NCBI GenBank assembly: GCA_016839555.1
Contig: JAEOUA010000001.1
Span: 246,043-310,042, forward strand
Source: Promethearchaeota archaeon
Lineage (GTDB): Archaea > Asgardarchaeota > Lokiarchaeia > Sigyniarchaeales > SOKP01
Reading direction: 5' to 3'
Length of the DNA stretch: 64,000 bases
The position numbers and the translations under genes were made by a program. The notes under the pieces were generated by a model. It saw nothing but the letters and a program-made list of their open reading frames with translations. It had not been told where the DNA came from and did no database searches. Of the stretch, positions 4,483 to 61,634 are shown in pieces. The stretch's first letter is position 1, and each line of letters begins with the position of its first letter.

Positions 4483-4483
4483 A

Positions 4484-5562: not shown

Positions 5563-5565
5563 ATA

Positions 5566-6870: not shown

Positions 6871-6885
6871 TATAAGCGTTTTAAA

Positions 6886-8118: not shown

Positions 8119-8226
8119 ATTTTAAATATTAATTCATTTAAATAACAACTTTTAAAAAAAATTCTTTTTTTATTTTGGTATAATTTTATAATCTAAAAAA
8201 ATCAATTGATTAAAAAGGAGATACTT

Positions 8227-10917: not shown

Positions 10918-11055
10918 CTTTTTTTTATTTTTTAATCTGAACTGTTTTTACATTTTAAATATGCTAAAAGACCCAAAAAGAATCTAATTACCTGTAATAG
11001 TTAAAAAAAGAAAAAACAAAGGAAATATTAAAAAAATTTTAAAATAAGGATTTTA

Positions 11056-11310
11056 TTACACTCCGCCAGCTTGAGTGGCCATCACGGTAATTACATCCTT
11101 CTTTGGGTGAATCCCAACTTTAGAAAACTTTAAGTCGTCAGGCAATACTTTTCCCTTGAAGATAAATTGAATTGCGAGCACTGGATTTAGTTTATATTCT
11201 TGCTGGACAGTTTTTTTAATATCAGCAATATTCTGACTTGGATCCACTTCGATTTGCTTAATTGCTTGATCTGGAGGAACTCCAGTTAATCGAAACCTAT
11301 ATTGTGTCAT
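11056..11310 (-). CDS. Ubiquitin-like protein ending in GG plus one residue
   Basis: IEVDPSQNIADIK...QFIFKGKVL beta-grasp pattern; C-terminus AGGV. Confidence 0.8.
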   Translation of the reverse strand: MTQYRFRLTGVPPDQAIKQIEVDPSQNIADIKKTVQQEYKLNPVLAIQFIFKGKVLPDDLKFSKVGIHPKKDVITVMATQAGGV

Positions 11311-11435
11311 TTTTTATACCTCTTATGATCTTTAAATTTTAATATTTAGTTAAGAATAGAATATAGAGAAAATATTAAAATACTCTTGTGAACTGAAGTG
11401 AACTTAAGTATATACTAAAGTCAAATTACTAAGAT

Positions 11436-13478: not shown

Positions 13479-13537
13479 CTTACCTTTTTTCGCTCTACAT
13501 TAAATATGAAAATTAAATATTTAAACTAAAGAATTCT

Positions 13538-13711
13538 TTAAAATCTAAAAGGTTCAGGTCCTTCACCGGGTTTAAATGGTTGAGGACCAGGCGGAGGGCT
13601 TGGAAACCTTTTTAATAATCTCTCAAGTTGAGCTATTCTTTTTTCTAAAGAATCCAGTCTCTCTTCTATTGTTTTAATTCTTTCTAACAAATTAGGATTT
13701 TGTATAGACAT
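13538..13711 (-). CDS. 57-aa coiled-coil protein with a Pro-rich tail (not in the ORF track)
   Basis: Manual translation: MSIQNPNLLERIKTIEERLDSLEKRIAQLERLLKRFPSPPPGPQPFKPGEGPEPFRF*. Confidence 0.65.
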   Translation of the reverse strand: MSIQNPNLLERIKTIEERLDSLEKRIAQLERLLKRFPSPPPGPQPFKPGEGPEPFRF

Positions 13712-13962
13712 TTTTATATTTTAAATATGTTTATATTAATGGTTTCAATTTAAACATATAGATTTGCGTTCATTTTAATTAATAAATGTAAATTATATAA
13801 ATTTATCGTCTTTTGGTTATAAATTTTAAAAGGATGCGCTCTGAATTAGGTTTCATAGTTATTCAGAAAAATTTTTGTTCGCAAAAACATTTAAGTTCGA
13901 ACTACCTTATATGTATTAATACAATCGTATAAGTTTTAATCATTTATTCTAAATATATTAAT

Positions 13963-15270
13963 ATGGAAAAATACAAAAAATCTGGGAATAGCGATACAAA
14001 GATTTCTAAAATCATACAAAATATGGAATATGATAAACGTATTTTATATGCCCTTGAGAATATAGGTCCTCAAAGATTTTCTGATTTAAATGAGATTTGT
14101 GAGATGAGTAAATCAAGTTTGTCAAAATACTTAAAACTTCATCTTCAAGAGCAAAATATTGAAAAAAAAATCCATAATAAAGCTCCCCATTACTTCTTAA
14201 CAGGAAAAGGAAGAGAAACACTCAATGAAGATCGTTCCAATTCAGAAGAGTATTTATTTTATATAAATGAGATTAAGAGTACCTATATCCAATCAACTGA
14301 CTTGATTGAATTTTACAGAAAAATAGGAATAGAGGAATCAATTCTTTTCCAAATTTTAGGAATAATTAATAAAATTGGCAATAAATTTTTTCAAATGAAT
14401 CAAAACCGGGAACTCTTTCTCGCTTTATTTTATATTTTTCTAAATTCGGTTTTAACTCGAGAATATAAATTTGAAATAAAGGAATTTTGTAAATATTATA
14501 ATGTAAAACAATTAAGAATTGATTTTCATGTGGATAAGATAATGTCTAGTAAATGCGGTTTTTTTATGTTTACTCGAGACGAGGATGTATTTTTTTTCCA
14601 TAGAGATGATATTTTGGGGACAGTCACATTACGATTAATAAAGAACCAATTAATAGAAGAAGTAAATCATATTAGCCTAAAAGGATATCGAGATATTTAT
14701 GATTTAGACCAAATGGCAGAAATTATTGCTAAACAATTAATTAGGATGGATTTAATTTGGGATAAAATTGTCGAACCGTTTGAAATGCTTATTGAGAAAA
14801 TGATTATCAAAATGGCTTTAGATATGGGTTTCTCAAAAACATTTTTAATGGATGTTGTTGTCCAGTCCGAAAAATTATCTAAATCTGAGGGAGGAATAAA
14901 TTCTTTAGTTAATATTATCAAAGGATCTGAAAAATATGAGGATTTAAATATTGTTTCCATCTCGGCATCGACTCAAAGAAAATTAGACGAAGTTCTTGAT
15001 AAAATAGAAGGATTTTGCCCAAATTGCGGTAAATCAATTTTAAAAAGAGATACAAAGAAAATATGTACCAGATGCAAAGAAAGATTCGAACCTCAAGAAC
15101 TATTAAAAAGCATAGATAAAGCTAATGAAGCAAGTTTGAAATATAAAAAACAAATATTAAAAGAAGAGGAATTAATTATTTGTCCTAATCCAGAATGTGA
15201 AGCAAAAGTCTCACCCAGTTGGGAATATTGTCCCGTTTGCCACTCTAAGATTAAAAAAGACAATCATTAA
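13963..15270 (+). CDS. Winged-HTH regulator with C-terminal double zinc ribbon
   Basis: N-terminal RFSDL...MSKSSLSKYL...YFLTGKG; CPNC/CTRC and CPNPEC/CPVC. Confidence 0.75.
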   Translation: MEKYKKSGNSDTKISKIIQNMEYDKRILYALENIGPQRFSDLNEICEMSKSSLSKYLKLHLQEQNIEKKIHNKAPHYFLTGKGRETLNEDRSNSEEYLFYINEIKSTYIQSTDLIEFYRKIGIEESILFQILGIINKIGNKFFQMNQNRELFLALFYIFLNSVLTREYKFEIKEFCKYYNVKQLRIDFHVDKIMSSKCGFFMFTRDEDVFFFHRDDILGTVTLRLIKNQLIEEVNHISLKGYRDIYDLDQMAEIIAKQLIRMDLIWDKIVEPFEMLIEKMIIKMALDMGFSKTFLMDVVVQSEKLSKSEGGINSLVNIIKGSEKYEDLNIVSISASTQRKLDEVLDKIEGFCPNCGKSILKRDTKKICTRCKERFEPQELLKSIDKANEASLKYKKQILKEEELIICPNPECEAKVSPSWEYCPVCHSKIKKDNH

Positions 15271-15480
15271 ACCTGATTAATTAATTTTATTTCCGGTTTT
15301 ATAGATTAAGGACCTGCTTATAATCTCTAAAGATTGCTTTTTATATTAATTTAAATTGTACCAATAAATTAAATAAACTATAAATTGAAGATTAAAAATT
15401 AAGCTCTGTTTATAATTATTTGAGAAGTATTAATGTAAAAACTTTCAAAATTAAAATTTAAAAATATATAATGATTTTTT

Positions 15481-17196
15481 ATGAGATCTGTTTTAAATAA
15501 AAAAGTTGCGGATATATTATTTGAGATTGCTGATTTACTTGAATTAAAGGGCGTTCAATTTAAACCACGAGCATATAGAAGAGCTGCACAAAATATAAAT
15601 AATTTTTCAGAAGATATTACAATCTTTTATGAAAATGAAAATTTAGAAGATATAGAAGGTGTTGGTAAGAGTATTGCCTTAAAAATAAAGGAAATTATAG
15701 AAACCGGCTCACTTAAATATTTAAAAGAGTTACGGCAAGAATTTCCTCAGGGTTTACAAGAAATGATGGATATCCAAGGATTAGGACCAAAATCCCTAAT
15801 GAAATTATATAATGAACTTAATATTCAAAATATAGATGAGCTAGAAAAGGCAGCTAAAAACCAAAAAATTCGGAGTATCGAGGGATTTGGAGAAAAGTCT
15901 GAGGAAAATATTCTAAAAAATATTGAAATGTATAAAAAATATCAAGAAAGGTTTTTATTGGGAGATATTTTACCTATTGCTGAAAATATTGAAAAAAAAT
16001 TAGCTAATCTTAAAGAAGTGAAACGAATTGATCTAGCAGGATCAATTCGCCGTAAAAAAGAAACTATTGGAGATGTGGATATTTTAATTATCTCACCTAA
16101 CCCCAATAAAGTAATGGATTTTTTCACAGAACTCGAGGAGGCAAAAAGAGTGGTCTCTAAAGGACATACACGGAGCACTATAATTACAGTAGAAAATTTA
16201 CAAGTTGATTTAAGAGTCGTTGAGAAAGAGAGCTATGGATCAGCTTTGCAATATTTTACGGGTTCAAAAGAACATAATATAAAACTTCGAAGCATAGCCT
16301 TAAAAAAGAACTGGAAATTGAGCGAATATGGATTAATAGATAAAGATTTAACAGAGACTATAGCAAGCGAAAACGAAGCAGATATTTATAAGGCTTTAGG
16401 ATTAGATTATATAGAACCCGAATTGAGAGAAGATCGAGGGGAAATTGAGGCAGCTCAGGAAGGAAAACTTCCTACTCTTATCAAATTGGATGATATAAAA
16501 GGAGATTTACATATGCATACCAAATGGAGTGAAGGTTCTAATACAATTGAGGAAATGGCTCAAGCAGCAAAAGAGATAGGATATCAATATATAGCTATAT
16601 GTGATCATGCTGAGACTTTACAAGTAGCAAGTGGACTTTCTTCTAAAGAGATTCGAGAACAAATGAATGAAATTGATGAAATTAATAAAAAAGTAGAAGG
16701 AATTACGATTTTATCAGGGATAGAAGCAAATATAGATGCTGAAGGAAAATTAGACGTAAAAAATGAGGTTTTAAAAGATTTAGATATTGTAGTTGCAAGT
16801 ATTCACTCGGGATTTAAAAACTCCGAAGAAATTATGACTACTCGCATTTTAAATGCTATGCATAATGATTATGTTAATATTATAGGGCATCCCACAGGAA
16901 GATTGCTTAATAAAAGAGAACCTTATGAGGTAAATTTATCTAAAATATTTGAAACTGCTGCTGATCTCGGAATATTTTTAGAATTGAATGCTTTTCCAGA
17001 TCGCTTAGACCTAAGCGATGTAAATTGCCGAGCGGCGAAAGATAATGATATATTGATCACTATTAATACCGATTCTCATCATAAAGATCATTTAAGATAT
17101 ATGAAATACGGAATAGCGACTGCCAGGAGAGGATGGCTTGAAAAAAAAGATGTCGCAAATACATTGATTTTAAAAGAATTAAAAAAATTACTCTAA
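15481..17196 (+). CDS. polX: DNA polymerase X with PHP domain
   Basis: AGSIRR, GDVD, YFTGSKEHN, GDLHMHT, HPTGR, DSH. Confidence 0.96.
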   Translation: MRSVLNKKVADILFEIADLLELKGVQFKPRAYRRAAQNINNFSEDITIFYENENLEDIEGVGKSIALKIKEIIETGSLKYLKELRQEFPQGLQEMMDIQGLGPKSLMKLYNELNIQNIDELEKAAKNQKIRSIEGFGEKSEENILKNIEMYKKYQERFLLGDILPIAENIEKKLANLKEVKRIDLAGSIRRKKETIGDVDILIISPNPNKVMDFFTELEEAKRVVSKGHTRSTIITVENLQVDLRVVEKESYGSALQYFTGSKEHNIKLRSIALKKNWKLSEYGLIDKDLTETIASENEADIYKALGLDYIEPELREDRGEIEAAQEGKLPTLIKLDDIKGDLHMHTKWSEGSNTIEEMAQAAKEIGYQYIAICDHAETLQVASGLSSKEIREQMNEIDEINKKVEGITILSGIEANIDAEGKLDVKNEVLKDLDIVVASIHSGFKNSEEIMTTRILNAMHNDYVNIIGHPTGRLLNKREPYEVNLSKIFETAADLGIFLELNAFPDRLDLSDVNCRAAKDNDILITINTDSHHKDHLRYMKYGIATARRGWLEKKDVANTLILKELKKLL

Positions 17197-46230: not shown

Positions 46231-49200
46231 TTGGTAATTCCATTAAGTTGGGATTGTTGCTATCTATATATTCTTTTTATTAACCGATGCTCCGTAATTG
46301 CCTCGGTAGCATCGCAGAACCCTCTAGTAGGAATGGGATTATATACCATGCTACATATCGTTCGGGGATTGGATCAGACCATGCAACAACAAGAGCTTTT
46401 AAAGAGTGCTTTCCACTCGTCCTTGTATATGGGAGAAATTCCCCTCTCAAGAAAACTTCCCGGTGATCAATACGACATTTGGGAGGAACTCAGCCTCCAA
46501 CTGCCCACCCACTGGAACAATATCCCAGCTCTCAAAACAGTTTACGCGCCCGTGCAAAGTATCTCAGAATATTTCACCTACAATGGCTATATCGTTACCT
46601 CAAAAGGCTTCACAACTGCCACTAAAGGCTTCAATATCTATACGGGCGTTTTGGATATTGAAGGGGATACTTCAGAACATCTCTCGATCGAGCTAAATGA
46701 ATTTTTAACATTATACTTATTAAATACTAAGCTATATCCTACTAATAATATTCCCTACTTAGAGCAAATTGCTTGGCGTTTATCCAAAACTGATCCCTCC
46801 TTGGAGCACCCCTTCGATAGGATTGTACCTCAGTTCATTTCAGGCGCCCCCAGCTTCGTGTTCGCTTCGTCTGAAGGATCATTGGTATTACCCGACTTCT
46901 ACGAGGAATATCCCCTCATGGGTCGCGTTTCCACAACCATAGATCCAAATTATTGGATCTATAAGGGTATAGGAATTTACTCTACATATACCGATGATCA
47001 ACTCGATGCACTGCGAATCTTTCGGCTCATTCCAGAAGATTCCATTCATCCCCTTAAATCCAATATTGCTTGCATTGAAGTTCGCCTTAATCTTTATGAG
47101 GAAGACAAAAGCCCGTTAATAATGACCCTATTTCCTCAAGATTATTCCTATGATCCAAGCACTAGACAGGTCACTATTAATAAAAACGTATTTGAGAGGA
47201 TAAAAAGCATTATAAGAGATTGTTTTGAGCCTTATAGTGGGCAAGAAAAGAGGGGATATTTTGAGTATAAGATCAATATAGAAACGGGACGCTCTATTTA
47301 TGATCCCAACGACGATCTTTCGGATGCTCAAGCGCAGAAGATCGCCCTCATGCAAGCCGTGCAGCTTTACATGCTTCAATATTATAACGAGTTTACACAG
47401 GGTGCCGCCCGCGCGCAAATCGACTTCGAGACGGTCTATACCGTGACCCTCACCACCATCAGCACCGCAATTACCCTAGCTGTCGGTATTGCCGCTTCCT
47501 CTGCATTTGCGGCTGAAGAGGTTATAAGTTCAAGTATTCAACAAGTAGTTCCCGCAGCGACTCGGGGTAGTCTCATTGCTGCTCAAGTCGTTCTTTCGGT
47601 CGCCTCTGAAAATCTAGAAGAGCTCTTCTTGGATCCCCTCATCGAGAGCGTCGTCACGGACTTAGTGAAAGACCTCGGTGGCGATGAGAAGGCACAAGTA
47701 ATTGCAAGTGTCCTCGCAGAATCCATCAGAGAAGGGTTAATGGGTACGGTTGCTGACTTCTCCCATATTAACATTATGAATAATCTTCAAAATCTGGTAT
47801 TTAACCACTATCAAGAGGCAATCATGTCCACCGCATCCGAACTTGCAACCCTGCACGCCTTCAGTGAATATCAACAACTCCTTGCCGAGCAACCAGGCTA
47901 CACCCTCGGGCCCATCCCGCTGTCCGCATTATCCACCTTGACTCTCTTTATCCCCTCTATGATAGCTGAATCCTTCTATATTCGGCAAGATGCCACTTCG
48001 GGCGAGGTGTTACACTTTCTCAGGGGGCTCACCGACTTCGGCATCAAAGGAGACTTCCTCAGATCCATCATACGAAATATGCATACCGCCGACAGCACCG
48101 CAGAAATAATCGGAACGCAGGAGATCGCCCCCGGCATCACCGCAGAGGTGTCTAATCCTGTCCTGCTCGCTCTTAAAAACGTCCTCGAAGATATTGCCTC
48201 TTCCCGATTAGCCTCCATACAAGATAAGAAGCCGTGCTCGCAGGAAGATATCAATGTTCTTAGAGAACAGTTTCTATCGGGAGAGATTGGTATAGAATTC
48301 ACCTTCATGTATGATGGCGGCGGAATTGATTATGGAGGAGATATGGGGATTCCTTTTGGAATAGATTTGCAAAATAACAAAAGAATTAAAAAGGTAAATA
48401 CACAGTCCCAGACCCATGAAAAAACCATGATAACATCAATTTTCAATTATCAAAAAACCTTAGATGAATGGTTGGGAGAGAATAATCATATTGAAGAAAT
48501 ACTACTGAGGAATTTAGAAGAAATAGCTAAGAGTAAAACAACTAATGATCAAAAAAAACATTATGCATTGTTAGTTGAAGGTTTTGATTCAAGATTCTCG
48601 TTGAAAGTGGCGAAAAGAATAGAGATTGATGAGCTTGCCTCAATTTTTGAACAGCAAGATGGTCCAAAATTTAAAGAATTCTTTGAGGTATTAAATCAAA
48701 TGCAAAATCCATTTGGAGCAAGAGTAGAAGAATTTATTCAAAAAAGAGATGAGAGCGGTAAGAAGCTCAGGTATAAAGATGCAAGACTTTTCATGGATGA
48801 TACTTTACTGGAAAGCATTAAAGAAGATATTCTTCAAAACCTTATACGAGCCACAGGAAAAAGCAAATACTTTTTTGAGGAGATAAATCCAAAAACGTTT
48901 GAGAAATTTGTCAAATATTACCAAGAAAATGATAAAGAATTTTATGAGAATTACTTACAAGAAGGCTTTTCTGATATGCTATTAAAGTATTTTGTCAATT
49001 TTGAAGTCCCTTTTCTTATCTGGTCTCAATATTTAGAACAGGATCAGACCAAATTAACGGAGTTAAAAGATTTTTATATGCAAAATTGGGATAAGGATGC
49101 TAAAAATTTGCAGAGAATTATTTGGGGGGTGCTGTTAGACTGCTATCATCCCCTCTTAGGTCAAAAGATTAAGATTGCCGATTGGGTTTCCTTAGACCTC

Positions 49201-49569
49201 CATCATTGGATGACCGCCTCCGGACACGAAAATAAATATTCTTGTCTACTTTTTTCGGTATTCCCTCTTCCTAGCGACCTTCGACTTGGAGAACCAATCC
49301 ATCTTCAATTAACGGGGCAAATAGAAAATAATCCCACAATAATGGGTACCCATTGGGAAAATCAAATAAGTGATGTGATTACAGCAGTTCTTAAGGGAGA
49401 TGTTCCATCCTCTACCATCTGGAAAGATGAAGAATATAATCAAAAATTTGATCAATACCAAAAATTGAATGAGAATGCAAGAAAAACAATAATTTGGTTA
49501 TTTTTATACTCTCATAGTGATTTAATAATAAGATTTAATCTAGAAAAAATAGATTTCTATTTTAAATAG
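46231..49569 (+). CDS. Putative polymorphic toxin: GC-rich N-region with hydrophobic helices, junction motif, then HNH-like (HHW) tip; true start uncertain
   Basis: KVNTQSQTHEKT at about aa 721; tip DCYHPLLG...LHHW...HENKY is homologous to 52938..54356; followed by an LRR gene. Confidence 0.7.
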   Translation: MVIPLSWDCCYLYILFINRCSVIASVASQNPLVGMGLYTMLHIVRGLDQTMQQQELLKSAFHSSLYMGEIPLSRKLPGDQYDIWEELSLQLPTHWNNIPALKTVYAPVQSISEYFTYNGYIVTSKGFTTATKGFNIYTGVLDIEGDTSEHLSIELNEFLTLYLLNTKLYPTNNIPYLEQIAWRLSKTDPSLEHPFDRIVPQFISGAPSFVFASSEGSLVLPDFYEEYPLMGRVSTTIDPNYWIYKGIGIYSTYTDDQLDALRIFRLIPEDSIHPLKSNIACIEVRLNLYEEDKSPLIMTLFPQDYSYDPSTRQVTINKNVFERIKSIIRDCFEPYSGQEKRGYFEYKINIETGRSIYDPNDDLSDAQAQKIALMQAVQLYMLQYYNEFTQGAARAQIDFETVYTVTLTTISTAITLAVGIAASSAFAAEEVISSSIQQVVPAATRGSLIAAQVVLSVASENLEELFLDPLIESVVTDLVKDLGGDEKAQVIASVLAESIREGLMGTVADFSHINIMNNLQNLVFNHYQEAIMSTASELATLHAFSEYQQLLAEQPGYTLGPIPLSALSTLTLFIPSMIAESFYIRQDATSGEVLHFLRGLTDFGIKGDFLRSIIRNMHTADSTAEIIGTQEIAPGITAEVSNPVLLALKNVLEDIASSRLASIQDKKPCSQEDINVLREQFLSGEIGIEFTFMYDGGGIDYGGDMGIPFGIDLQNNKRIKKVNTQSQTHEKTMITSIFNYQKTLDEWLGENNHIEEILLRNLEEIAKSKTTNDQKKHYALLVEGFDSRFSLKVAKRIEIDELASIFEQQDGPKFKEFFEVLNQMQNPFGARVEEFIQKRDESGKKLRYKDARLFMDDTLLESIKEDILQNLIRATGKSKYFFEEINPKTFEKFVKYYQENDKEFYENYLQEGFSDMLLKYFVNFEVPFLIWSQYLEQDQTKLTELKDFYMQNWDKDAKNLQRIIWGVLLDCYHPLLGQKIKIADWVSLDLHHWMTASGHENKYSCLLFSVFPLPSDLRLGEPIHLQLTGQIENNPTIMGTHWENQISDVITAVLKGDVPSSTIWKDEEYNQKFDQYQKLNENARKTIIWLFLYSHSDLIIRFNLEKIDFYFK
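48389..48428 (+). repeat. Junction repeat J1 (aaaaggtaaatacacagtcccagacccatgaaaaaaccat)
   Basis: Read directly; identical to the reverse complement of 59536-59575. Confidence 0.95.
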
Positions 49570-49607
49570 AGTAATATAAAAAGAACAATTTAAATATATT
49601 AAAAGAA

Positions 49608-50465
49608 ATGAATGAAAATAGATATATTAAATTGAAAAAAGATGGTGTTCTTGAAGAAGAAATTCAAGTTATTAAATTACTTGAAAAGGATGTTGAGAAT
49701 CCAATTTATATAAAAAACATTCAAAATCATAGAATTACGAGTATATCTATGAATGAGTGTGGAATAAGTCAAATTTCCTCTAAGATAAAAAATTTAAGAA
49801 ATTTAGAATATTTATTTATAAGTGAGCCTAAACTTAAAAAAATTCCAGATACAATAGAACATCTAACTAAACTAAATCAATTAAGAATAAATAAAAGCTT
49901 GATTCAAGAATTACCTATTTCTTTAAAAAATTTAACCAATCTAAAAGAAATAGGGATAGCTAGAAGTAGATTAAAAAACTTTCCAAATCAAATATGTAGA
50001 ATAAAGGGATTAGAAGCAATTTCTTTAAGTGGAAATCAAATTACATCACTTCCACAATGTATTAGACAGTTAACACAATTAAAAGGATTAATAATGGATA
50101 ATAATAAGTTAAAAAAACTTCCCGATTCTATTTGTCAGCTCAAAAACCTCCGAACTTTATCGTTAAAGAATAACCAATTAGAAGAATTACCTAAAGATAT
50201 TGGCAATCTAATGATGGGGCATAAGATAGAGTTAGGTAATAACAAATTACACTCTTTACCAGATTCCTTCAAACATCTCGGAGAATTACTATCTATTAAA
50301 CTAAATGATAATCTATTTGAAGAAGTCCCACCCGTTTTAGAGGAAATGAAAATATTTTCTCTTGACCTATCGGGAAATCCTATTAAAACGTTCCCTAAAG
50401 AGATTGGAAATATCTCCTTGATTGACGAGAAAGGGCTCTATATGGTGCAGGAAGATAAAATTTAA
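49608..50465 (+). CDS. Leucine-rich repeat protein, putative immunity protein
   Basis: Tandem LxxLxLxxNxLxxLP repeats; directly downstream of an HHW tip. Confidence 0.85.
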   Translation: MNENRYIKLKKDGVLEEEIQVIKLLEKDVENPIYIKNIQNHRITSISMNECGISQISSKIKNLRNLEYLFISEPKLKKIPDTIEHLTKLNQLRINKSLIQELPISLKNLTNLKEIGIARSRLKNFPNQICRIKGLEAISLSGNQITSLPQCIRQLTQLKGLIMDNNKLKKLPDSICQLKNLRTLSLKNNQLEELPKDIGNLMMGHKIELGNNKLHSLPDSFKHLGELLSIKLNDNLFEEVPPVLEEMKIFSLDLSGNPIKTFPKEIGNISLIDEKGLYMVQEDKI

Positions 50466-50492
50466 AAATATATTACTTAGCAAAGTCGCATC

Positions 50493-50594
50493 CAAAATTG
50501 TATAGGTATGATTATGCATATTGGGAGATGAGCCCTTTCCTCACGAATCAATCTTTTTCATCTTGCATCAAATGAGAACAGATTAGTGAAGAAA
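50493..50594 (+). repeat. Dispersed repeat family B, copy 1 (partial)
   Basis: caaaattg...tgggagatgagccctttcctcacgaatcaatctttttcatcttgcatcaaat...gattag resembles 55948-56045. Confidence 0.7.
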
Positions 50595-50795
50595 TTTATT
50601 ATTAATAGATAGTTTGGTTTAAATCATTTAGATTTTCTTTTTTTGATTTGAGGACAACTATCCATTAATACCGAAACATAAATAATTTAATAAAAATCTG
50701 AATAAAATAAAATTTTTGATTTTAAGGTTTTTCTATTTTAAAAAGAATTAAAGGATAAATCTTTTGGATATTTGGTCAATTTTATTTAATATAAT

Positions 50796-51710
50796 TTAGA
50801 TCCACCAATAATTTTGAACTATCTTTAATTGTATATAATTTTGTATTATAAAGCAAATGTAATTTCTCTCTCCTACAACAAAGTCGCAATAGGGAATAGC
50901 AAAAGAAAAACTCGCTATATCAGGAATATCGTTTATAATATAGGGGCGATTAGGTATTTTCTCAATCCCATTATGCAGACAGATATTAGTATATAAAAGT
51001 GGAAATTTTTTTAAGAAATCAATTAATTCTTCGTTTTTAATGTTTTTTATTATGAATTCCTTAGGATCTACATTAAACTCTTTGCACCAATGGACTATTC
51101 TTGGAAAAAAAGTCTCAATTAAATATTTATACATTCTAATTTTACCTCTATAAGTCTTATCTTTGTATTTCCAATTGATATTACTAATTCTCTCCATTTC
51201 TTTTACGACAGGTTCGTAATTATCTTTTGGACTATGATCATCTAGGAGAACTTTTAGTATTGTATCTTGAGCAGAGAAAACTTCTTTTATTTTAGTTTCA
51301 TACTTTTTTTTCTCTTCACCTTTTAATGAAGTTTTTGGAAGCGTACCATCATGAATTAAGTAATGGGCACCAATTCCAATAGCAGACTCTTGAATGCTAC
51401 GGAATGGAATTTGTAAGTAATTTTTAATAAAGTTGATTATTTCCAAATTAATAGTATAATTATAAGGAATGAAACAATAACCTTTTGAAACATCTGCCAT
51501 AAATCTAGCCAGTTTATCTCTTCTATTTCTATTTGATATTTTTTTAAGTTCAACCACATTAGTTAAATTAATTGGAACTACTAAAATGTTTTTCTTTATA
51601 AGGAATTTTATCTTTTCTAAAAGCTCACTATAAAGTTCATTTGTTTTTTTCTTTTAATACATTTGACTTAAGTAAATCCAAATATTTTGATCCAAATAAA
51701 GATACTTCAT
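50796..51710 (-). pseudogene. PIN-like protein interrupted by an in-frame TAA at codon 19
   Basis: MKYLYLDQNIWIYLSQMY* continues in frame into ORF 50796..51557 (...NDIPD....AIPYCD..VGE). Confidence 0.7.
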
Positions 51711-52035
51711 TAGGTTTTTATTCTGTTTCTTTTAAATTAGTTAACCTTTCTATATGAGATTTATTCAAATAACCTAAAAAAAAATCTATATTTATTTAAA
51801 TAACTGGATTTAATTATAAATGAGAGTCTGAAGGATTATTGTATTTTTGAAACAAACAAAAAATTTTATAAAAATAAAACCTCAATTTATATCTGTAAGT
51901 GATATAGAAGTCTACATTATTAATTGAAAATATAAATAATCATGAAATTTTGTCTTTGAAAGTTAATTCTAGAAATCATTGAAAAGAAGAACCAAAGAGA
52001 GAAGTAGATTGCTGATATGAAAAGTGATTAAAACT

Positions 52036-52872
52036 TTATTTTTTATATTTATAGATTCCTTTTTTTATTGCTTTTGCTTTTCCAACCTTTCTAGGAAATT
52101 TTTTAATGGGATTACCAAAAATATATAAGTAAGCAAATTGATGCTTTTTTAAATGGTCAGGGAATTCGGTTAACTTATTATTACTCACATCTAACCCCAT
52201 TAAAAATTTTATATTTGAGAAAGACTCTGGTATGGATTTTAAAAGGTTGTTACTTAGATTAATTTCAAGAAGATTATTCATATCACCAAAATTCTTAGGT
52301 AGGTGAGTTAATTGATTAAATGAAAGTGAAAGTCTCTTTAACTTTTTTAGATTACACAATGAATCTGGAAGGGTTTTTATTTGATTTTTTTGAATATAAA
52401 ATATTTCTAAATCCTTTAAGTTTTCAATACATTCAGGAAGATTCCTAATTTGATTGCTACCTAAATGTAATGAATTCAAATTTTCAAGCTGACAGATCTC
52501 CTCAGGGAATTTTTCTAAATTACTACTACCAATAACAACCTCATATAATTTTCCTAAATTTTCAAAAGTTTGAGGAATATTCTTTATAGAACTCTTATAT
52601 ATAGAAAATCTTCTCAAATTTGAAAGATTTCCTATAGTAGTAGGTAAGGATGTTAGGAATTCATCACTTATTGTTAAATATTCTAATTTCTTAAGATTAT
52701 CAATATTCTCAGGAATATTCTTTATTCCCGAATCAAAAGCATCTATTCTAATTATTCGATTATCCTCGTTTACATCAATAAAAACATTCTTTATGATTTT
52801 AGCTTCTAAATCATCTATAAACTCTCTTTCATTAGAAAGAAGCTCACTTATATCTTCTATTTGTCTTGTCAA
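52036..52872 (-). CDS. Leucine-rich repeat protein, putative immunity protein (paralogue of 49608)
   Basis: LRR array; shares LEYL.IS, FP..IC, LPDS.C.LK.L and GNPIK.FP with 49608..50465. Confidence 0.85.
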   Translation of the reverse strand: MTRQIEDISELLSNEREFIDDLEAKIIKNVFIDVNEDNRIIRIDAFDSGIKNIPENIDNLKKLEYLTISDEFLTSLPTTIGNLSNLRRFSIYKSSIKNIPQTFENLGKLYEVVIGSSNLEKFPEEICQLENLNSLHLGSNQIRNLPECIENLKDLEIFYIQKNQIKTLPDSLCNLKKLKRLSLSFNQLTHLPKNFGDMNNLLEINLSNNLLKSIPESFSNIKFLMGLDVSNNKLTEFPDHLKKHQFAYLYIFGNPIKKFPRKVGKAKAIKKGIYKYKK

Positions 52873-52937
52873 AACCTTATATCTACTTTTATTTTTTTAT
52901 TTATTTGTATATTTAAAAATCTATATCATTTAATTAA

Positions 52938-54356
52938 CTATGTTAGTAATAATTTAATCATTTCAAATATTTTTCTATTTTGTCTAAAATATCTCTCAAA
53001 CATATCTTTATTTTCCAAATTCCAATATTCTGGTGCATTTCCCTCAAGAACACTTGCTATAATTTCCATAAATTCCTGATCAAATAATGCCGCTAATCTA
53101 CGAGAATTCCGAATATGTTGTGTCATAAAATTATGCCCAATATCTCCGCTAATCTCTCCTGTTATAGGATCTTCAAACTGAGAGTTTCCCTCTGCGGGAA
53201 TAGCAATTAATGAGATAAAATTGTTCATATACTTGTTTTCATGTCCATAAAAAGTTTTCCAATGATGAAGAGGAAATCGTAGCCAATCTTTTAAGTCTAT
53301 TTTTTCTCCTGTAAATGGATGCTGGCAATCAAATACGACAGCCCAAAAGAATCTTTGGAATAACTGGGCAGATTCGTCATTTTTCCATCTTGCATAATGT
53401 TTTTTTGAAACTCTCTCACTTGTGGAGACTTCTGCTATATATTCTAGAAACATCAATTCATAATCCACAAAATAATCTAATAATGCTTCATAGAAAGAGT
53501 TTCCATTAATGTATTTCTCCTTAAATTTTGGCAGAGTTTCTCTTAAATTCTTATAAGTAGTACCTTTCAAATCATCATTAGTCAAAGATTTAAGTTCTTC
53601 AAGGATACTTGATCCAATGTCATTTAGCTCATTCTTATCTAATTTCATAAGAGACTCAATCTTGTTGGTAATATATTGGCGGACATTGATATTTTGCTCT
53701 TTAGGATGAGCAATGCCTAAGCGTAAGGCAAATATTGACTCTTCACTAAGCTCATATAACTGAAATAATTCTCTTAATTGAGCAAGAGAAGCTAATTCAT
53801 ATCCATTTATGAATAAACCATAATCTTGTGGTTTCCCAAATTTGACATTAAATTCTGAAAACGCATTCTGAACGATTTCCGCTATGCTTGTGGTAGATGT
53901 AATTTTTATTGGTCTTCTATCTATTTTTCCATAAGTATTAGGATTTCCAATGAAGCGCTCAATCGTGATTTCTTCGACTCTTTCAGCTGGTTTAGTGCCC
54001 CATAAATACCAACGGGAAGCTAAAGTATACCCCAATTCTTCTAAAGCACTCCTAACAGCACTAATTGAATCTAACTTCCAAATATCTCCGTTTTCGTCAA
54101 AAATATATTTTTTATCAATAGGTAAAAAATCATATAAAACTTCTACAATTTCTTTAGTAAATTTAATAGGTTTGTTTTTATCTAAGTTTTGATTAGGATT
54201 AATTTCACTATATTCCAATCCCATTATATCTTGGATGATTTGAATAGTTCGTGTATCAATAGATTCTTGATCAGATTTCATTATTGCTTTGATTTTTTCG
54301 ACAATGGTTTTTTCATGGGCCTCGGACTGTGTATTTAACTTTTTGAAGCAGAACAC
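52938..54356 (-). CDS. Orphan toxin cassette: junction motif, ubiquitin-like domain, HNH-like (HHW) tip
   Basis: Begins KLNTQSEAHEKT; tip DCQHPFTGEKI...LHHW...HENKY; followed by an LRR gene. Confidence 0.7.
   Translation of the reverse strand: MFCFKKLNTQSEAHEKTIVEKIKAIMKSDQESIDTRTIQIIQDIMGLEYSEINPNQNLDKNKPIKFTKEIVEVLYDFLPIDKKYIFDENGDIWKLDSISAVRSALEELGYTLASRWYLWGTKPAERVEEITIERFIGNPNTYGKIDRRPIKITSTTSIAEIVQNAFSEFNVKFGKPQDYGLFINGYELASLAQLRELFQLYELSEESIFALRLGIAHPKEQNINVRQYITNKIESLMKLDKNELNDIGSSILEELKSLTNDDLKGTTYKNLRETLPKFKEKYINGNSFYEALLDYFVDYELMFLEYIAEVSTSERVSKKHYARWKNDESAQLFQRFFWAVVFDCQHPFTGEKIDLKDWLRFPLHHWKTFYGHENKYMNNFISLIAIPAEGNSQFEDPITGEISGDIGHNFMTQHIRNSRRLAALFDQEFMEIIASVLEGNAPEYWNLENKDMFERYFRQNRKIFEMIKLLLT
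54304..54343 (-). repeat. Junction repeat J2 (inverted; 37/40 identical to J1)
   Basis: Reverse complement aaaagttaaatacacagtccgaggcccatgaaaaaaccat. Confidence 0.93.
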
Positions 54357-55011: not shown

Positions 55012-55236
55012 ATGGTTCAAGAAATAAATAAGAAAAAATATTGGTTTGATGAACAAAACTTATTAAAACCCATAGATTGGGATTATGTTCATACGCTTTC
55101 AAATAGAGTGCAGAACGCATTAGAACTTTATATGAGAGGAGATGTATCTATTGGGAGAGCAGCAGAAATAGCTCGATTACCTTATAGAGAATTTGATCGT
55201 ATTCGGGCAATAGCACGGATTCCAATTCATCATTAG
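55012..55236 (+). CDS. UPF0175-like HTH antitoxin
   Basis: ALELY.RG.VSIGRAAEIA motif; upstream of a PIN gene. Confidence 0.8.
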   Translation: MVQEINKKKYWFDEQNLLKPIDWDYVHTLSNRVQNALELYMRGDVSIGRAAEIARLPYREFDRIRAIARIPIHH

Positions 55237-55242
55237 TGTTAA

Positions 55243-55785
55243 ATGGAAATGATTGTTATTTCTGATACTGCCCCAATCATCTTTTTTGGAAAGGTCAATA
55301 AGCTAAATCTTCTAAAAGATCTTTATCAAACAATTTATTTACCAATTGAGGTTTGGGCAGAATTAATATATCCATTAACACAAAATGATGATGATATTCC
55401 TGAAGACATTAATTTGGAATTAGAAGCTAAAGAAAAAGGTTGGATAATTGTAAAAAATCCAGAGAAAGAGGAATCACTTGAATTAGCATTAAATCTTTCC
55501 CATGATTTAGGCTTAGGGGAGTCGTATGCAATTGCTCTAAGTGTTGAGCTTAATGCTGATTTACTTTTAATTAATGACAAAAAAGCAAGAGATGTAGCAA
55601 TCAATTTAGGAATCAAAACAAAATGGACAACTGAAGTTCTTGTTGATGCGGTGTCTAAAAATTTTATTACAGATTTTGAAGATTTTAAGCAAATATTTAA
55701 TGACATGATAGAGAATGGTTTATGGATTGAAAAAGATTATTATAAGAAACTAATAAAAGATGTTGAAAATAAGTTTTATAAATAA
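55243..55785 (+). CDS. DUF3368/VapC-like PIN toxin
   Basis: ISDTAPII, V..E, LGLGES.AI.L, LLINDKKAR. Confidence 0.85.
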   Translation: MEMIVISDTAPIIFFGKVNKLNLLKDLYQTIYLPIEVWAELIYPLTQNDDDIPEDINLELEAKEKGWIIVKNPEKEESLELALNLSHDLGLGESYAIALSVELNADLLLINDKKARDVAINLGIKTKWTTEVLVDAVSKNFITDFEDFKQIFNDMIENGLWIEKDYYKKLIKDVENKFYK

Positions 55786-55880: not shown

Positions 55881-56049
55881 AAGCTTTTCATCACGTGTCT
55901 TCAGATTATGTGAAGAAATATGAGAATATCATAAATAAATTTGTGCACAAAATTGCATGGAGAAGAGTATGCAAGATGGGAGACGACTCCTTTCCTTACG
56001 AATGGAATCTTTTTGTCTTGCATTAAATATAATCAGATTAGATGAGAAA
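55881..56049 (+). repeat. Dispersed repeat family B, copy 2
   Basis: Two 28-bp blocks (55908-55935 and 55956-55983) are identical to the inverted copy at 62363-62533. Confidence 0.88.
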
Positions 56050-56205
56050 GCTATAGATAATATAATAATTAGATTTTCTAAATATAAAAAATATAAATCT
56101 TTATCTGCTTAGGAAGAAGAATCTTCTTCTTAATCCTTATTTAAAAATTCATTTAAGATATTTAGAAGTAATCAATTAGTTTAAAAAGCTCAATAGGAAC
56201 ATTAT

Positions 56206-57282: not shown

Positions 57283-57753
57283 TTATTTTTCATTAATCGG
57301 AAGCCAAGCTATTAAATCTAATCCCGCGGCTTGAAAAATTATCTCATCCCCTTTATTTATTTCAATACCTTGTCTTTCGAAATCGCTTTGTGTTATTAAA
57401 AAGATCATTCCATCATATTCAATAGCAAATTTCTCTTTCTTTAATTTAAAACCATTACATTGGTTCCACTTTTCAGGTATATTGTATTTTCCTAGATATT
57501 TTGCTTTTATAATTGGATTTTTTATATTTTCTTTATCATTATATTTATTTATCGAATTTATTTTATTCATATAAGAGATCCAAATCAAAAGATCAACTAT
57601 TTTTCCAATATAAGCTCTAAGATCAAAAGGTTTTTCATCCCTAATCCAAACCAATCTCTCATTTTCAAGTTTCGCTAAGATCGAAAAGCTAAAAATTTTA
57701 TCCTCATAGGGATCATAACCACTCCTTTCTATTTCTATAATTTTAACTTTCAT
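57283..57753 (-). CDS. Putative immunity protein, family I (C-terminal GD.I.F...LDL.AW)
   Basis: Paralogue of 58154 and 61635; its ATG overlaps the stop codon of the upstream orphan tip. Confidence 0.7.
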   Translation of the reverse strand: MKVKIIEIERSGYDPYEDKIFSFSILAKLENERLVWIRDEKPFDLRAYIGKIVDLLIWISYMNKINSINKYNDKENIKNPIIKAKYLGKYNIPEKWNQCNGFKLKKEKFAIEYDGMIFLITQSDFERQGIEINKGDEIIFQAAGLDLIAWLPINEK

Positions 57754-58157
57754 ACTTCTTTAATACCTAAATATCGAATTTTTTGGTATAAATTTTCAAT
57801 TTCATCAATAAAATATAGTCTTAATTCAATAATATTTCCTTTTTCATTAATTTTTATTCCTAAATATTCAATGGTATCTAAATGTTTAAATCTGTATACT
57901 TGAAATCCCAATTCATCATCTAGTACAAAGTAATTATCTTTAATAATCTTATATGCAAACTCAGCAACTTGATATGGCTTTTTTATATTCCATTTCTCAA
58001 AATCAATCTTATATTTTTGGAATGAATGAATGAATCCAAATCCCTTTTCTACTCCATATATTAATAAATATGGATTATTATACCCCTCTCTAGTAGTAAA
58101 GATGACTTCTCGATAGTCCTTGCAGCTTAAAAATTTGAATAAGAATAAATATTTTAT
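57750..58157 (-). pseudogene. Start-less orphan toxin tip (RNase-like class), 135 codons; not in the ORF track
   Basis: Manual translation ...EKGFGFIHSFQKYKIDFEKWNIKKPYQVAEFAYKIIKDNY...YLGIKINEKGNII...KEV*, homologous to the tips of 58602 and 60001. Confidence 0.75.
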
Positions 58158-58594
58158 TCAAGAGGACGCCAAGCAATTAAATCAAGTCGACCCTCAGAAA
58201 AGGTAATTATATCTCCATCATTTAAGTCTTTTGGCGTTTTCAAAAAATCTAATAATATGATCCCATTTACCGTTTGAACAGCAGGATAAGTTTTTGATAT
58301 TTGTCTTTTATCATAGTTCCACCAGCTCTCAGGAATTTGATAATTTTCTATAAACCTACCAGTAAAAATTGGTTTCGATCTGTCATGTCCTTTAGTAAAA
58401 TCAACCGAATTTATATTTATAGTACCAAGGGCGAGTATTAAGCAATCAATTATTGTATTAATTTTAATATTGGGATTGAAATGATCAAATAATTCTACTT
58501 CCATTCCATTATCTAATTGTGCTATAATTAAATAATCGCTTTTTTGATCCATATATACTGTACTAGGCCATAAATCTTTAATAAATGCTCTCAA
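58154..58594 (-). CDS. Putative immunity protein, family I
   Basis: Ends GDIITFSEGRLDLIAWRPLE; starts 8 bp after the toxin cassette stop. Confidence 0.7.
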   Translation of the reverse strand: MRAFIKDLWPSTVYMDQKSDYLIIAQLDNGMEVELFDHFNPNIKINTIIDCLILALGTININSVDFTKGHDRSKPIFTGRFIENYQIPESWWNYDKRQISKTYPAVQTVNGIILLDFLKTPKDLNDGDIITFSEGRLDLIAWRPLE

Positions 58595-58601
58595 TATTTG
58601 C

Positions 58602-59744
58602 TCACTCCTTTTTTATTTTGTTTTGTCCAAATCGGTGTGCCGTTATAATGAATCCATTAGTTCCTATTCCAATTAATAGATATTGTACCTCTTCCTTAAT
58701 TCTCAATTCATAGAGGTAAGTATGTCCTTGTTCAATCGTGAATTTATAATCAATCTCTTCTTGTGTCTCTAAAATTTCTAAGATATTGTCTATTCTTTTT
58801 TGAGGAGTATTCCAATCAACACCCCAATCTTCAAATTGATTTTCATAATGTTTTCCATCAATTTTCAGCATTCCTACCCCTTTATCTTCAATAGAATCAT
58901 AATAACCCAACTCAATCCACATTACTTGTTTTGTACCATGTTTTCTTATAACTCCAAGGACTTCATCAATATTAAATTTAACTGGCATCTCATGAATAAC
59001 ATTTTTTCCAGCATCATCCATTTTCTGTATAATCTTTCCTTCAATATCCTTAAGCATCTGTAAACGCTCATCTGTAGCATATGTATCTGATTTCCATTTA
59101 TCAATACTTGGATTATTTGGCATCCCAAATGCTTCTCTTGCAGTAATTTTTCCTTGTTTCACAAGCTCCATCAATCGTAATGTTTTCTTTTTTGATAAGC
59201 ATACCTTTCCAATGATATCATTCTTGGAAACAAGTTCACTATCAACCTTCTGATTGGTGTCGGGATTCAACCCTATGGTGATAAAAAATTCGTTCCCTTT
59301 AGCGTCAAAAATGTGATTTTCAATCATGTGAATTATAATCGTCCCATCACTCCGTTTAAAAACGATAATGTCTCCTATGTTATATCTGGTAAATCTCCTT
59401 ACTTTCTTAGCCCCTACAATTTCACCATCATAGAATAATTGATTCATTGAAGGACCCTTATATATAAACGCTTCATAGTTTCTTTGTAATCTTGAATCGG
59501 TTATTTTTTGGAAAATTACTTTAATTTTCTCAACGATGGTTTTTTCATGGGTCTGGGACTGTGTATTTACCTTTTCAAGACCCGATTGCGGGGGCTCAAG
59601 CCTCCAGTAGCTTATCCCAAGAATAGTCTTAATCCCATAAATACATTCAAGCTCATTATAGAGGTAATCCTTGGAGAATAAACCCTTGCTGCGGATGCTA
59701 AATAGTCTATGAGAGTGGATTGTTTGTGAATTGGGACATTGACT
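58602..59744 (-). CDS. Orphan toxin cassette: junction motif, S26 signal-peptidase-like domain, RNase-like tip (open frame extends upstream of ATG 59447)
   Basis: Frame is open from 59744: ...LEKVNTQSQTHEKTIVEKIK...YKGPSMNQLFYDGEIV...GDIIVFK...IIHMI...; tip KGVGMLKIDGKH..QFEDWG...GFIITAH. Confidence 0.7.
   Translation of the reverse strand, partial: SQCPNSQTIHSHRLFSIRSKGLFSKDYLYNELECIYGIKTILGISYWRLEPPQSGLEKVNTQSQTHEKTIVEKIKVIFQKITDSRLQRNYEAFIYKGPSMNQLFYDGEIVGAKKVRRFTRYNIGDIIVFKRSDGTIIIHMIENHIFDAKGNEFFITIGLNPDTNQKVDSELVSKNDIIGKVCLSKKKTLRLMELVKQGKITAREAFGMPNNPSIDKWKSDTYATDERLQMLKDIEGKIIQKMDDAGKNVIHEMPVKFNIDEVLGVIRKHGTKQVMWIELGYYDSIEDKGVGMLKIDGKHYENQFEDWGVDWNTPQKRIDNILEILETQEEIDYKFTIEQGHTYLYELRIKEEVQYLLIGIGTNGFIITAHRFGQNKIKKE
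59536..59575 (-). repeat. Junction repeat J3 (inverted; 40/40 identical to J1)
   Basis: atggttttttcatgggtctgggactgtgtatttacctttt on the + strand. Confidence 0.95.
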
Positions 59745-60000
59745 TCACCAGCCGTCTGCAGCTATTAAGGTCGTGATTCCAGGCTTCGGCTCAATAGATA
59801 TTTGAGGAGAGATGATGCTCGCGAGTCTCTGGGATATTTCTAAGCTTAGCAAGGATTCGGAAAGCTCTTTTAAATATATCACGATAATAATTCTCTTCCC
59901 TAATATTTTCTATTCTCTAAACCTTTTTTATTCCATTTGCTAAGCGGAGCTCCTACTCAATTAGGAGCTTCCTTCGAATAAGAACAAATACGCCCTAAAG

Positions 60001-61623
60001 ATGGGAATTAAAAAAGGAAAAGCGACAATGGAGCGATCAATAATACTAAAGAAGAATATAATGGTAAATACACAGTTCGAGACCGATGAAAAAACCACTA
60101 AAGAAAAAATTAAGGATTTTATTAATAAAGATAAGATAAAGAATTTCTTGAAATATGCAATTCCAATAGGCACGGCAGCAACATTATCTGTAGTTCTTCC
60201 TTATGTGGGTGCACCCATGTTATTAGCTCAAGCGGTTAGTTTAGCTACTTCAACATTAGGTATAACCCTTATATATAAAAATGCCAAAATAGATTCTCGT
60301 AATAGTAAACATTTAACACTTTCGCAATATAAAAAAAATAATATTGATGAAATATCAAATTGCTATAAAGGAGATTATTTAAAATATATTAAAGAAGTTG
60401 ATTTGGCTTTTAGTACAATTAACATGAAATCAAAAGAATTGAGAAATTATCTCAAGAACCCTGATTTTTATGGAATAATCTATGAAATATATAATAGAAA
60501 AACAGGATTCATACACATTGAAAAAAGTAGGATCAAGGAATCCCCATCAGCTCATTTGACTCGATTAAAAAATGAAATTAGACAAAAAGAAAAAGAGGGA
60601 GTTAGATTAACACCTTTTGAAAGAGATTTCATAAATAATCCAGGAAATTATGAAATAAGACGTCTTCAATTATGTTTTAATAAAGAACAATATGAATATA
60701 ATGAAATATTTTGGAAATTAATTAACAATGCTAGATTGGGCGGAGTAGGTTATGACCTTGGAATAAATGGTTGGTATGACACCTCAATCTTGAATAGAGA
60801 ATATAATGGTGTCTCGGAAACGGATTTAACACTTGATATATTGAGCGGAATGAGTGAAAGAGCATTAAGAAGAAAATATGGCTCTGAAGACCTTACTGCA
60901 ATGTTAATGGAGTTTTATGACGTTGGAAACCTAGAAGAAGCTCAAAAATTGTTTATTCAACCTATTATAAAGAAATTAGTAGAACGATTTTATGGTATTC
61001 AAAAAGCTTTAGATGTTTTAAAGGAACATAATATTAATTTTGCTCCTAGTGAATTCTGGCTTAATGATTTTTGTAAGAAAATCTATGGTAAAACCTATAA
61101 TCAACTCTTAGATGAATTAAGTCCGATATATGAAAGATATATGGGTGATCAAAAGGGTAGATTAGTGGATCTAAAGATTTATTTAAGAGAAAAAGGAGTT
61201 GAGCTTTCTTGTGATGATAATGAAATCAAGGCTATCATTAAAGGACCTAAAATAGAGGGATGTGATTTATATTATATAACCCTAGGGCATCAGAATTATG
61301 AAAAAGGACAAGAGACTGATGGATTTGGAATTGAACATTGGGTTTATAAACATTTAACTATAAAACAATTTATAGGGGAAGGAATACAAAATCCAGAAGA
61401 ACTGGTTAATTTTGCATTGAAGACACTAGATAATAATTATAATTATAAATATAAAATTCGAGATAATGGTAGAATATCGATACTATATCTAGTAGAAAAT
61501 AATATAGGTAACCCTTACTTTATTAAATTTATTATTTCAGAAGATAGAGGATTAATTACCGCAATTCATATGACTTATAATGAAGGGAGAAATGAATATA
61601 ATAATCCCGAATTAATAACATGA
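60001..61623 (+). CDS. Toxin cassette: junction motif, hydrophobic segment, GIY-YIG-like domain, RNase-like tip
   Basis: VNTQFETDEKT; YGIIYEIYNRKTGFIHI...E.FW...GYD; tip DGFGIEHWVYKH...F...GI.NP...RGLITAIH. Confidence 0.68.
   Translation: MGIKKGKATMERSIILKKNIMVNTQFETDEKTTKEKIKDFINKDKIKNFLKYAIPIGTAATLSVVLPYVGAPMLLAQAVSLATSTLGITLIYKNAKIDSRNSKHLTLSQYKKNNIDEISNCYKGDYLKYIKEVDLAFSTINMKSKELRNYLKNPDFYGIIYEIYNRKTGFIHIEKSRIKESPSAHLTRLKNEIRQKEKEGVRLTPFERDFINNPGNYEIRRLQLCFNKEQYEYNEIFWKLINNARLGGVGYDLGINGWYDTSILNREYNGVSETDLTLDILSGMSERALRRKYGSEDLTAMLMEFYDVGNLEEAQKLFIQPIIKKLVERFYGIQKALDVLKEHNINFAPSEFWLNDFCKKIYGKTYNQLLDELSPIYERYMGDQKGRLVDLKIYLREKGVELSCDDNEIKAIIKGPKIEGCDLYYITLGHQNYEKGQETDGFGIEHWVYKHLTIKQFIGEGIQNPEELVNFALKTLDNNYNYKYKIRDNGRISILYLVENNIGNPYFIKFIISEDRGLITAIHMTYNEGRNEYNNPELIT
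60063..60098 (+). repeat. Junction repeat J4 (direct; 32/36 identical to J1)
   Basis: ggtaaatacacagttcgagaccgatgaaaaaaccac. Confidence 0.88.
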
Positions 61624-61634
61624 GGTAAACCTAA

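Follow-up and report, generated by a model that had tools for sequence, protein, structure and literature searches.

What is the function of leucine-rich repeat (LRR) proteins that are encoded directly behind a family of variable C-terminal domains in an Asgard archaeon? The question is raised by a 64,000-nucleotide stretch of contig JAEOUA010000001.1 (assembly GCA_016839555.1), referred to as the window, from a 3.74-Mb, 92% complete genome of a Loki-type archaeon; coordinates follow window numbering throughout. Two open reading frames (ORFs) of the window, A and B, end in homologous domains, termed tip A and tip B (BLASTP E 3e-25, 31% identity over the tip), which are the sole two copies of the tip in the genome, and each ORF is followed by a gene for an LRR protein, LRR-A and LRR-B, respectively. 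A sequence-only reading of the window had described two homologous tips, each with an LRR paralogue close behind and the two pairs converging, and this arrangement is confirmed, with the quoted motifs present and the gaps short (Table 1). The two pairs are probably C-terminal toxin-immunity cassettes of a giant polymorphic-toxin family of Loki-type Asgard archaea. An origin of the pairs by local duplication was considered and rejected, as they are not sisters in the tip tree or in the LRR tree.

Conserved residues and predicted fold of the tips

The conserved residues are H991, H992, N1001 and H1024 in tip A (ORF A numbering) and H364, H365, N374 and H408 in tip B (ORF B numbering). Across a 39-row alignment, each histidine of the His-His pair is retained in 38 rows, a lysine in 38, the later histidine in 35 and the asparagine in 34. 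The structure of tip A was predicted with a pLDDT of 92.7, and its conserved residues fall on a strand-loop-strand-helix unit comprising strand 87-90, strand 108-111 and helix 122-131, with the His-His pair on the first strand and the later histidine on the helix. Tip B was modelled with a pLDDT of 88.4.

Both models were compared with 48,161 solved chains using VIA. For tip A, the top 12 matches are all HNH proteins (Z 3.4-4.7), and for the core of tip B the top 17 all have the HNH/EndoVII fold, the best being Cap5 (Z 5.7, rmsd 3.4 over 92 residues); a second structural look gave a best Z of 5.9. The matches span rmsd values of 3-4.7 and include Cap5, the PtuB proteins of retron and Septu systems, McrA, the HNH domain of Cas9, IscB and T4 Endo VII. 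Three structural searches place HNH proteins first, with hardly any other fold interspersed, and distant tip relatives have the canonical short HNH spacing. The case for the HNH fold holds because this ranking is uniform and the residues are conserved, not because of one strong score. The predicted beta-beta-alpha core and the pattern of putative catalytic and metal-binding residues make it very highly probable that the tips are HNH-fold nucleases, and the earlier comparison of their HH..N..H spacing with His-Me finger nucleases is supported for both tips. By analogy with such enzymes, the second histidine of the LHHW motif would serve as the general base, and the first histidine, together with the histidine of the following helix, would bind the metal.

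The distribution of the tip is narrow. About 40 relatives were found in a library of 1.8 billion proteins, a k-mer search for longer relatives returned one protein, and the tip is present in 10 of the 134 genomes of one Loki family and in 0 of 265 other genomes of the phylum.

LRR proteins and their linkage to the tips

LRR-A and LRR-B match the Pfam models LRR_8 and LRR_14 with E values of about 1e-23 to 1e-25, are 38% identical, and are mutual best matches among the 21 LRR ORFs of the genome. LRR-A is built from 23-residue repeats behind a family-specific N-cap; a k-mer search for this N-cap gave no match at E<=1e-20. The closest solved relatives of the LRR proteins are LRRD1, Leptospira LRR proteins (LIC12759) and SHOC2, all with 23-residue repeats, a class common in bacteria and eukaryotes.

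Tips were collected from relatives without regard to the neighbouring genes, and genomes and loci are labelled G and L; three tip loci (G154:C278, L017 and L041) lie too near a contig edge and were left unscored. Each of the 17 intact core tips whose downstream DNA can be read has an LRR protein of 234-301 aa encoded 35-154 bp behind it. The chance that an LRR gene is the neighbour is about 0.6% (21 of 3,380 ORFs), and the 17 loci are relatives rather than independent cases. The LRR proteins that follow tips form, together with four orphans, one clade apart from 16 other LRR proteins (SH-aLRT 99), tip and LRR identities are correlated (Mantel rho 0.67, p 1e-4), and each tree contains the tip-A group. 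The gene linkage that had been expected among homologues is thereby found at every informative core locus, and in the source genome, which has 21 LRR ORFs, both tips have an LRR gene downstream.

The exceptions are also informative. At five more distant HH tips, the place of the LRR protein is taken by a short non-LRR partner, a tip gene with a premature stop (L006) has no intact LRR gene behind it, and neither does a tip copy that has lost its histidines. A search with the LRR N-cap, which produced a clear score gap, recovered five additional members without a tip, in three genomes, one of them broken. Three orphan LRR genes adjoin genes of SUFU, a family named among immunity proteins in a survey of bacterial toxins (PMC3482391). 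A genome of the same genus (G153) keeps tip-less orthologues of both LRR-A (47%) and LRR-B (62%). The broken tip, the histidine-less tip and the orphan LRRs therefore fit an immunity role. A tip-specific downstream gene, accompanied by orphan cassettes and orphan immunity genes, is the organisation expected of polymorphic toxins. The five tip-less members in three genomes rule out that the LRR clade is strictly exclusive to tips.

Several further observations concern these loci. An LRR remnant after the broken tip of L006 is a weak, by-eye match of a few residues. In L044:1-5591, the order is an intact tip, its LRR protein, a second LRR protein of another class and a histidine-less tip copy, which may be a decoy or a dead paralogue. 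Both tip-less orthologues of G153 are preceded by the same sequence of about 78 nt at contig ends (L075:1-80 and L076:4142-4218), and L075 may retain the last 25 or so codons of a tip-A-like gene. Other tip classes, assigned by motif as RecB-like PD-(D/E)xK, deaminase-like and RNase-like, also directly precede LRR genes of other clades (G000:C11:3981-10291, which is L082; L024:471-8125; L101:1552-4197 and 10361-15998). LRR proteins seem, from these gene orders, to have been recruited as tip partners several times.

The complex of tip A and LRR-A was modelled in three runs, with a median score of 0.89 against 0.62 for the best control and a partner pLDDT of at least 85. The mark that it reaches is attained by 58 of 80 solved pairs and by 2 of 110 mismatched pairs, and tip A with LRR-A passes on this measure. 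At the modelled interface, the concave face of the LRR protein lies on the H1024-bearing helix and the C-terminal helices, and the His-His pair is excluded. Interface positions are more variable than other polar positions in the LRR protein (0.35 vs 0.46) and in the tip (0.35 vs 0.53), as is expected for diverging pairs and also for surfaces in general. The orphans beside SUFU genes, the loss beside dead tips and the passing model support the earlier proposal of an immunity role for the LRR proteins, which are most likely the immunity proteins of the tips.

Carrier, junction sites and alternative explanations

The coordinates of the features are collected in Table 1.

Table 1. Features of the two tip-LRR pairs and of the candidate junction sites, in window coordinates.
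Feature	Position	Strand	Description
ORF A	46231-49569	+	1112 aa; carrier part and tip A
Carrier part of ORF A (aa 1-~719)	46231-48385	+	apparent 5'-truncated end of a giant polymorphic-toxin carrier; GC 0.45
Junction site A	48386-48428	+	candidate crossover site of about 41 bp, read KVNTQS..HEKT and located in frame at ORF A residue 720
Tip A	48976-49569	+	predicted divergent HNH (beta-beta-alpha-metal) nuclease domain and C-terminal helices; from alignment, model and structural matches
LRR-A	49608-50465	+	285 aa; 38-bp gap after ORF A; predicted cognate immunity protein of tip A
ORF between the pairs	50796-51557	-	253 aa; passenger around which the pairs converge
LRR-B	52036-52872	-	278 aa; 65-bp gap after ORF B; predicted cognate immunity protein of tip B
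ORF B	52938-54356	-	472 aa; carries tip B
Tip B	52938-53483	-	predicted HNH nuclease domain; from model and structural matches
Possible ubiquitin-like (beta-grasp) module upstream of tip B	53739-53927	-	weak Pfam RA (E 0.005), FERM_f0 and TUG-UBL1 matches; atlas ubiquitin-family rows 0.84; a lead only
Junction site B	54304-54344	-	inverted relative to site A, 93% complementary over 41 nt; lies where the tip-B frame begins, with 14 open codons before it and 466 after it
Junction site C	59536-59578	-	matches the complement of site A at 98% over 43 nt; shares the frame of a third tip cassette, an unrelated one (ORF 58602-59447)
Junction site D	60057-60097	+	matches site A at 88% identity over 41 nt; shares the frame of a fourth tip cassette (ORF 60001-61623)

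Residues 21-1112 of ORF A align with residues 3005-4098 of a protein of more than 4,099 aa (L039, E 2e-63), which ends in the same tip type and is followed by an LRR gene; judged by this alignment, ORF A is the last 1,100 or so residues of a giant carrier type. Hydrophobic helices lie near residues 400-430, and the pre-toxin region is common to three or four other carriers of the genome that end in other tips, among them C11 and C7 ORFs with PD-(D/E)xK-like tips (by motif); it also occurs in L013, L024 and L039. A shared carrier with differing C-terminal toxin domains is a hallmark of polymorphic toxins. The arrangement in L013 is the classical one: behind the giant and its tip come the LRR protein, then a deaminase-like fragment and then pre-toxin cassettes that recur with other tips. 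Both giants, L039 and L013, extend beyond contig ends.

Some carriers show additional modules. A 322-aa ORF with an N-terminal hydrophobic segment (G000:C11:2798-3766) precedes a 1702-aa carrier (3981-9089), perhaps as a split, internally deleted giant gene. Ubiquitin-like modules stand directly before several tips (L036:468-1709, L017:4284-5621, L013:8961-13334, and the window module of Table 1), and that of L036 (Pfam ubiquitin E 1.5e-4, below the cut-off) ends in Gly-Gly-Gly immediately before the toxin part, where a protease might release it. S24/S26 peptidase-like domains (weak Pfam matches) before the tip in L018:7460-10555, L081:52-1455, L043:4371-6029 and L042:4911-6806 are candidate self-cleaving release domains.

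On the toxin-immunity reading, the tip would be carried into a neighbouring cell on a large exported carrier, where it would cut nucleic acid, most likely DNA, and the cytoplasmic LRR protein encoded downstream would wrap the tip with its concave face, as in the model, and shield the producer and its kin. Several observations weigh against this reading and lend themselves to other explanations. The tips have no significant sequence match in Pfam, including its HNH and toxin models, nor in NCBIfam, PADLOC or PDB, so that no named family model fits them; Foldseek gave no match at E<=0.001, and the structural scores are modest (Z under 6). The fold check called for by the sequence-only reading gave a structural ranking in favour, with the Foldseek search empty; a feature search of the ESM Atlas added no information. 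Low scores and missing profile matches would suit a tip that is no nuclease, a helical domain whose His-rich metal- or nucleic-acid-binding loop merely resembles HNH. With HNH proteins ranked first three times, the near-invariant His-His pair and the later histidine placed on strand 1 and on the helix of a beta-beta-alpha unit, and the canonical spacing of distant members, this is very improbable. Regarding the complex, one of the three runs scored 0.01 and the runs agree in at least 0% of contacts; the LRR protein scored 0.62 with an unrelated control protein, which makes it sticky in the model, and close cousins also pass, so a pass does not mark cognate specificity. The two trees are partly congruent only, with G128 and G042 placed differently, and co-inherited cassettes would yield correlated tip and LRR distances without binding. 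Partial congruence, the general use of LRRs as binding scaffolds and an interface that leaves out the His-His pair would all agree with a chaperone, export adaptor or substrate-targeting partner instead of an inhibitor. Such a role is very unlikely: a chaperone has no use when its client is missing, but LRR genes that lack a tip persist intact in three genomes, some beside SUFU genes, and the slot right after the tip is the immunity slot, in which other tips have other partners.

Compared with the giant, ORF A is also short of about 3,000 residues at its N-terminus, and it has no clear signal peptide; this copy may be non-exported, a spare or a remnant, which again weighs against the toxin-immunity reading. 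The pairs could instead form an intracellular toxin-antitoxin or addiction cassette that stabilises a mobile array or aborts virus infection, its truncated carrier never being exported. The missing giant N-terminus of ORFs A and B, the site-flanked arrays, with a tyrosine recombinase adjacent in some relatives, a PIN/UPF0175 pair in the same island, and nearest folds that are defence nucleases (Cap5, PtuB, McrA) all point in this direction. The explanation is nonetheless unlikely, since the same tip and LRR protein end intact giants of more than 4,000 aa (L039 and L013), the carriers have hydrophobic pre-toxin helices and interchangeable tips, the orphan LRR genes are grouped with SUFU immunity genes, and PADLOC gave no match.

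The junction sites bear on how the toxin-immunity cassettes came to converge. The genome holds four copies of the site, all in this island, against 0.28 expected by chance in the window. Base composition changes across site A, from a GC of 0.446 to one of 0.321 and from a GC3 of 0.465 to one of 0.284. An in-silico inversion between sites A and B yields an open frame of 1187 aa ending in tip B, and one between A and C yields 1043 aa ending in the third tip. Inverted in-frame sites can explain the convergence of the pairs, for which the sequence-only reading gave no reason. Tip exchange would take place at this DNA site, which is short, conserved and within the carrier frame, tip A now being joined to the carrier remnant and tip B kept as a spare in the opposite orientation; recombination between inverted sites, the geometry of which is seen, would swap the two as in a shufflon. 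Among relatives, an 18-mer pattern of the site has exact matches in 72 of 134 genomes of the family (1-10 per genome), with one control match, and of the 14 other tip carriers that were examined, 8 have a related site in front of them or within them. In other genomes, the same downstream modules are fused or detached exactly at a related site, L015 and L101 have a tyrosine recombinase and a regulator adjoining the site, and a site copy precedes one orphan LRR-SUFU cassette by 220 bp. Crossover at the junction site is likely.

The linked recombinase scores 51 bits against an integron-integrase model with a cut-off of 265. In four metagenome runs, contigs end within the repeat; the joints (59573/48387 and others) measure 35-45 nt, not exceeding the repeat, all at a depth of 10.3, and they probably come from another locus or strain with the same repeats. 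In other genera, site copies are mostly intergenic and in direct orientation, flank ordinary accessory genes and are not specific to toxins, and one XerA-like PF00589 gene on contig C10 is the sole tyrosine recombinase found in the 92% complete genome. These two findings count against tip switching, and both the abundance of related sites and the lack of a dedicated recombinase in the assembly favour a frozen layout. The repeat would then be a dispersed MITE-like or integron-like target, and cassettes would have been inserted in either orientation or joined by ordinary homologous recombination. This layout, which concerns the convergence alone and is compatible with the toxin-immunity reading, is slightly favoured, even though the island holds all four copies, in both orientations and each in frame with a tip, and has one carrier placed to receive tips. 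An active inversion switch in the source genome is rated as doubtful. A broader scheme is, taken as a whole, equally tentative: a Loki-type site-specific cassette system, with one short conserved site and a linked tyrosine recombinase, would swap tips in frame onto giant surface carriers and capture immunity-only cassettes, LRR proteins with a variable concave face would be recurrent antidotes in an archaeal LRR-based self/non-self system, and the locus would be an active four-tip switch.

The site is the conserved half of a dispersed element of about 80 bp (20 loci, L086-L105) found on the borders of accessory-gene arrays, which include acetyltransferases and hydrolases; a tyrosine recombinase and a NikA-like regulator lie beside some of these loci, as in an integron-like or rAID-like system. 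A second tip class, RNase-like by motif only, occupies 57283-62069, where ORFs 58602-59447 and 60001-61623 are each followed by a 144-156-aa partner of one family and have sites C and D in common with the HHW cassettes; ORF 58602 begins with a signal-peptidase-like domain (TIGR02228, E 8e-11, below the cut-off). The ORF between the convergent pairs has no match in Pfam, PADLOC or NCBIfam. A UPF0175 and PIN/DUF3368 gene pair, likely a toxin-antitoxin module, lies at 55012-55785 within the island. A second repeat family of 115-134 nt, with copies 71-81% alike in both orientations, is found after LRR-A and around the island (50493-50607, 55881-56062 and 62365-62534), possibly as a decayed mobile element.

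Relation to known systems

In its genomic organisation, the locus resembles a bacterial polymorphic toxin-immunity system, from which delivery, killing and neutralisation would follow by extension. Bacterial polymorphic toxins with HNH/EndoVII tips include Tox-LHH, Tox-AHH, Tox-WHH and Tox-ColE7 (Zhang et al. 2012, PMC3482391). The shared features are a large carrier, a variable C-terminal nuclease with an HH..N..H core, an immunity gene immediately behind it, and orphans of both kinds, cassettes as well as immunity genes. The archaeal carrier belongs to another family, however, and the tip fits no Pfam toxin model; bacterial HNH tips, in the passages compared, are paired with SUKH, SuFu, ankyrin and numbered Imm families and not with LRR proteins (PMC3482391). 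LRR immunity proteins themselves are already known as a prediction: Imm-LRR was proposed in 2012 next to polymorphic toxins and in poly-immunity loci (PMC3482391, Table 3). As given in that table, Imm-LRR is bacterial only, stands next to toxins of the type V secretion system (T5SS) and has no assigned toxin family, whereas in Asgard archaea a single LRR clade accompanies a single HNH tip family.

The junction sites recall the shufflon of IncI plasmids, in which pilV is rearranged by Rci at sfx sites (PMC9045228). Both have sites with a conserved right arm and a variable left flank, segments between facing sites, invertible in the plasmids and putatively so here, two convergent ORFs each, and alternative C-termini for one constant N-terminus (PMC9045228), and here too inverted sites flank two convergent, in-frame alternative C-termini. 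In contrast, the Asgard segments are 6-11 kb long with their own partner genes, no recombinase adjoins the site in this genome, although relatives have one beside it, inversion is a prediction from assembled sequence, and the site is common outside toxin loci. The rAID-1 immunity arrays of Bacteroidales (bioRxiv 10.1101/471110) and archaeal integrons (PMC9668308) pair a tyrosine recombinase with repeated intergenic sites and with arrayed accessory or immunity genes. The recombinase and regulator abutting the site in L015 and L101 resemble them; the Asgard site differs in also lying in frame inside toxin carriers, where it joins tips, and its recombinase stays far below the integron-integrase cut-off.

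What is new is an HNH tip family that matches no named model, has an LRR clade dedicated to it as partner and occurs in one Loki family on site-bounded cassettes; no description of polymorphic toxins with LRR immunity in Asgard archaea was found in the literature searched, with the main archaeal survey (Makarova et al. 2019) outside it. One clade among the many Asgard LRR proteins is given a specific, testable role, and a tip of about 200 aa with an LRR protein of about 280 aa offers a small two-gene system for archaeal kin discrimination. The in-frame junction site suggests a route of tip exchange, and the site is common across the whole Loki family. The suggested link to the origin of eukaryotic LRR-based recognition found no support, the tip family being confined to one Loki family; its narrow and patchy range argues against the pair as an ancestor of such recognition.

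The vertebrate ribonuclease inhibitor binds RNase A through LRRs of 28/29 residues. The likeness lies in the modelled placement of an LRR concave face on a nuclease; the LRR class is another, with a period of 23 aa, and so is the nuclease fold, which makes the resemblance an analogy and not a homology. The comparison drawn by the sequence-only reading holds to this extent as a functional analogy and fails for the LRR class, the nearest relatives being LRRD1, Leptospira proteins and SHOC2. A nuclease bound by an LRR protein, if true, would be an independent parallel to the ribonuclease inhibitor.

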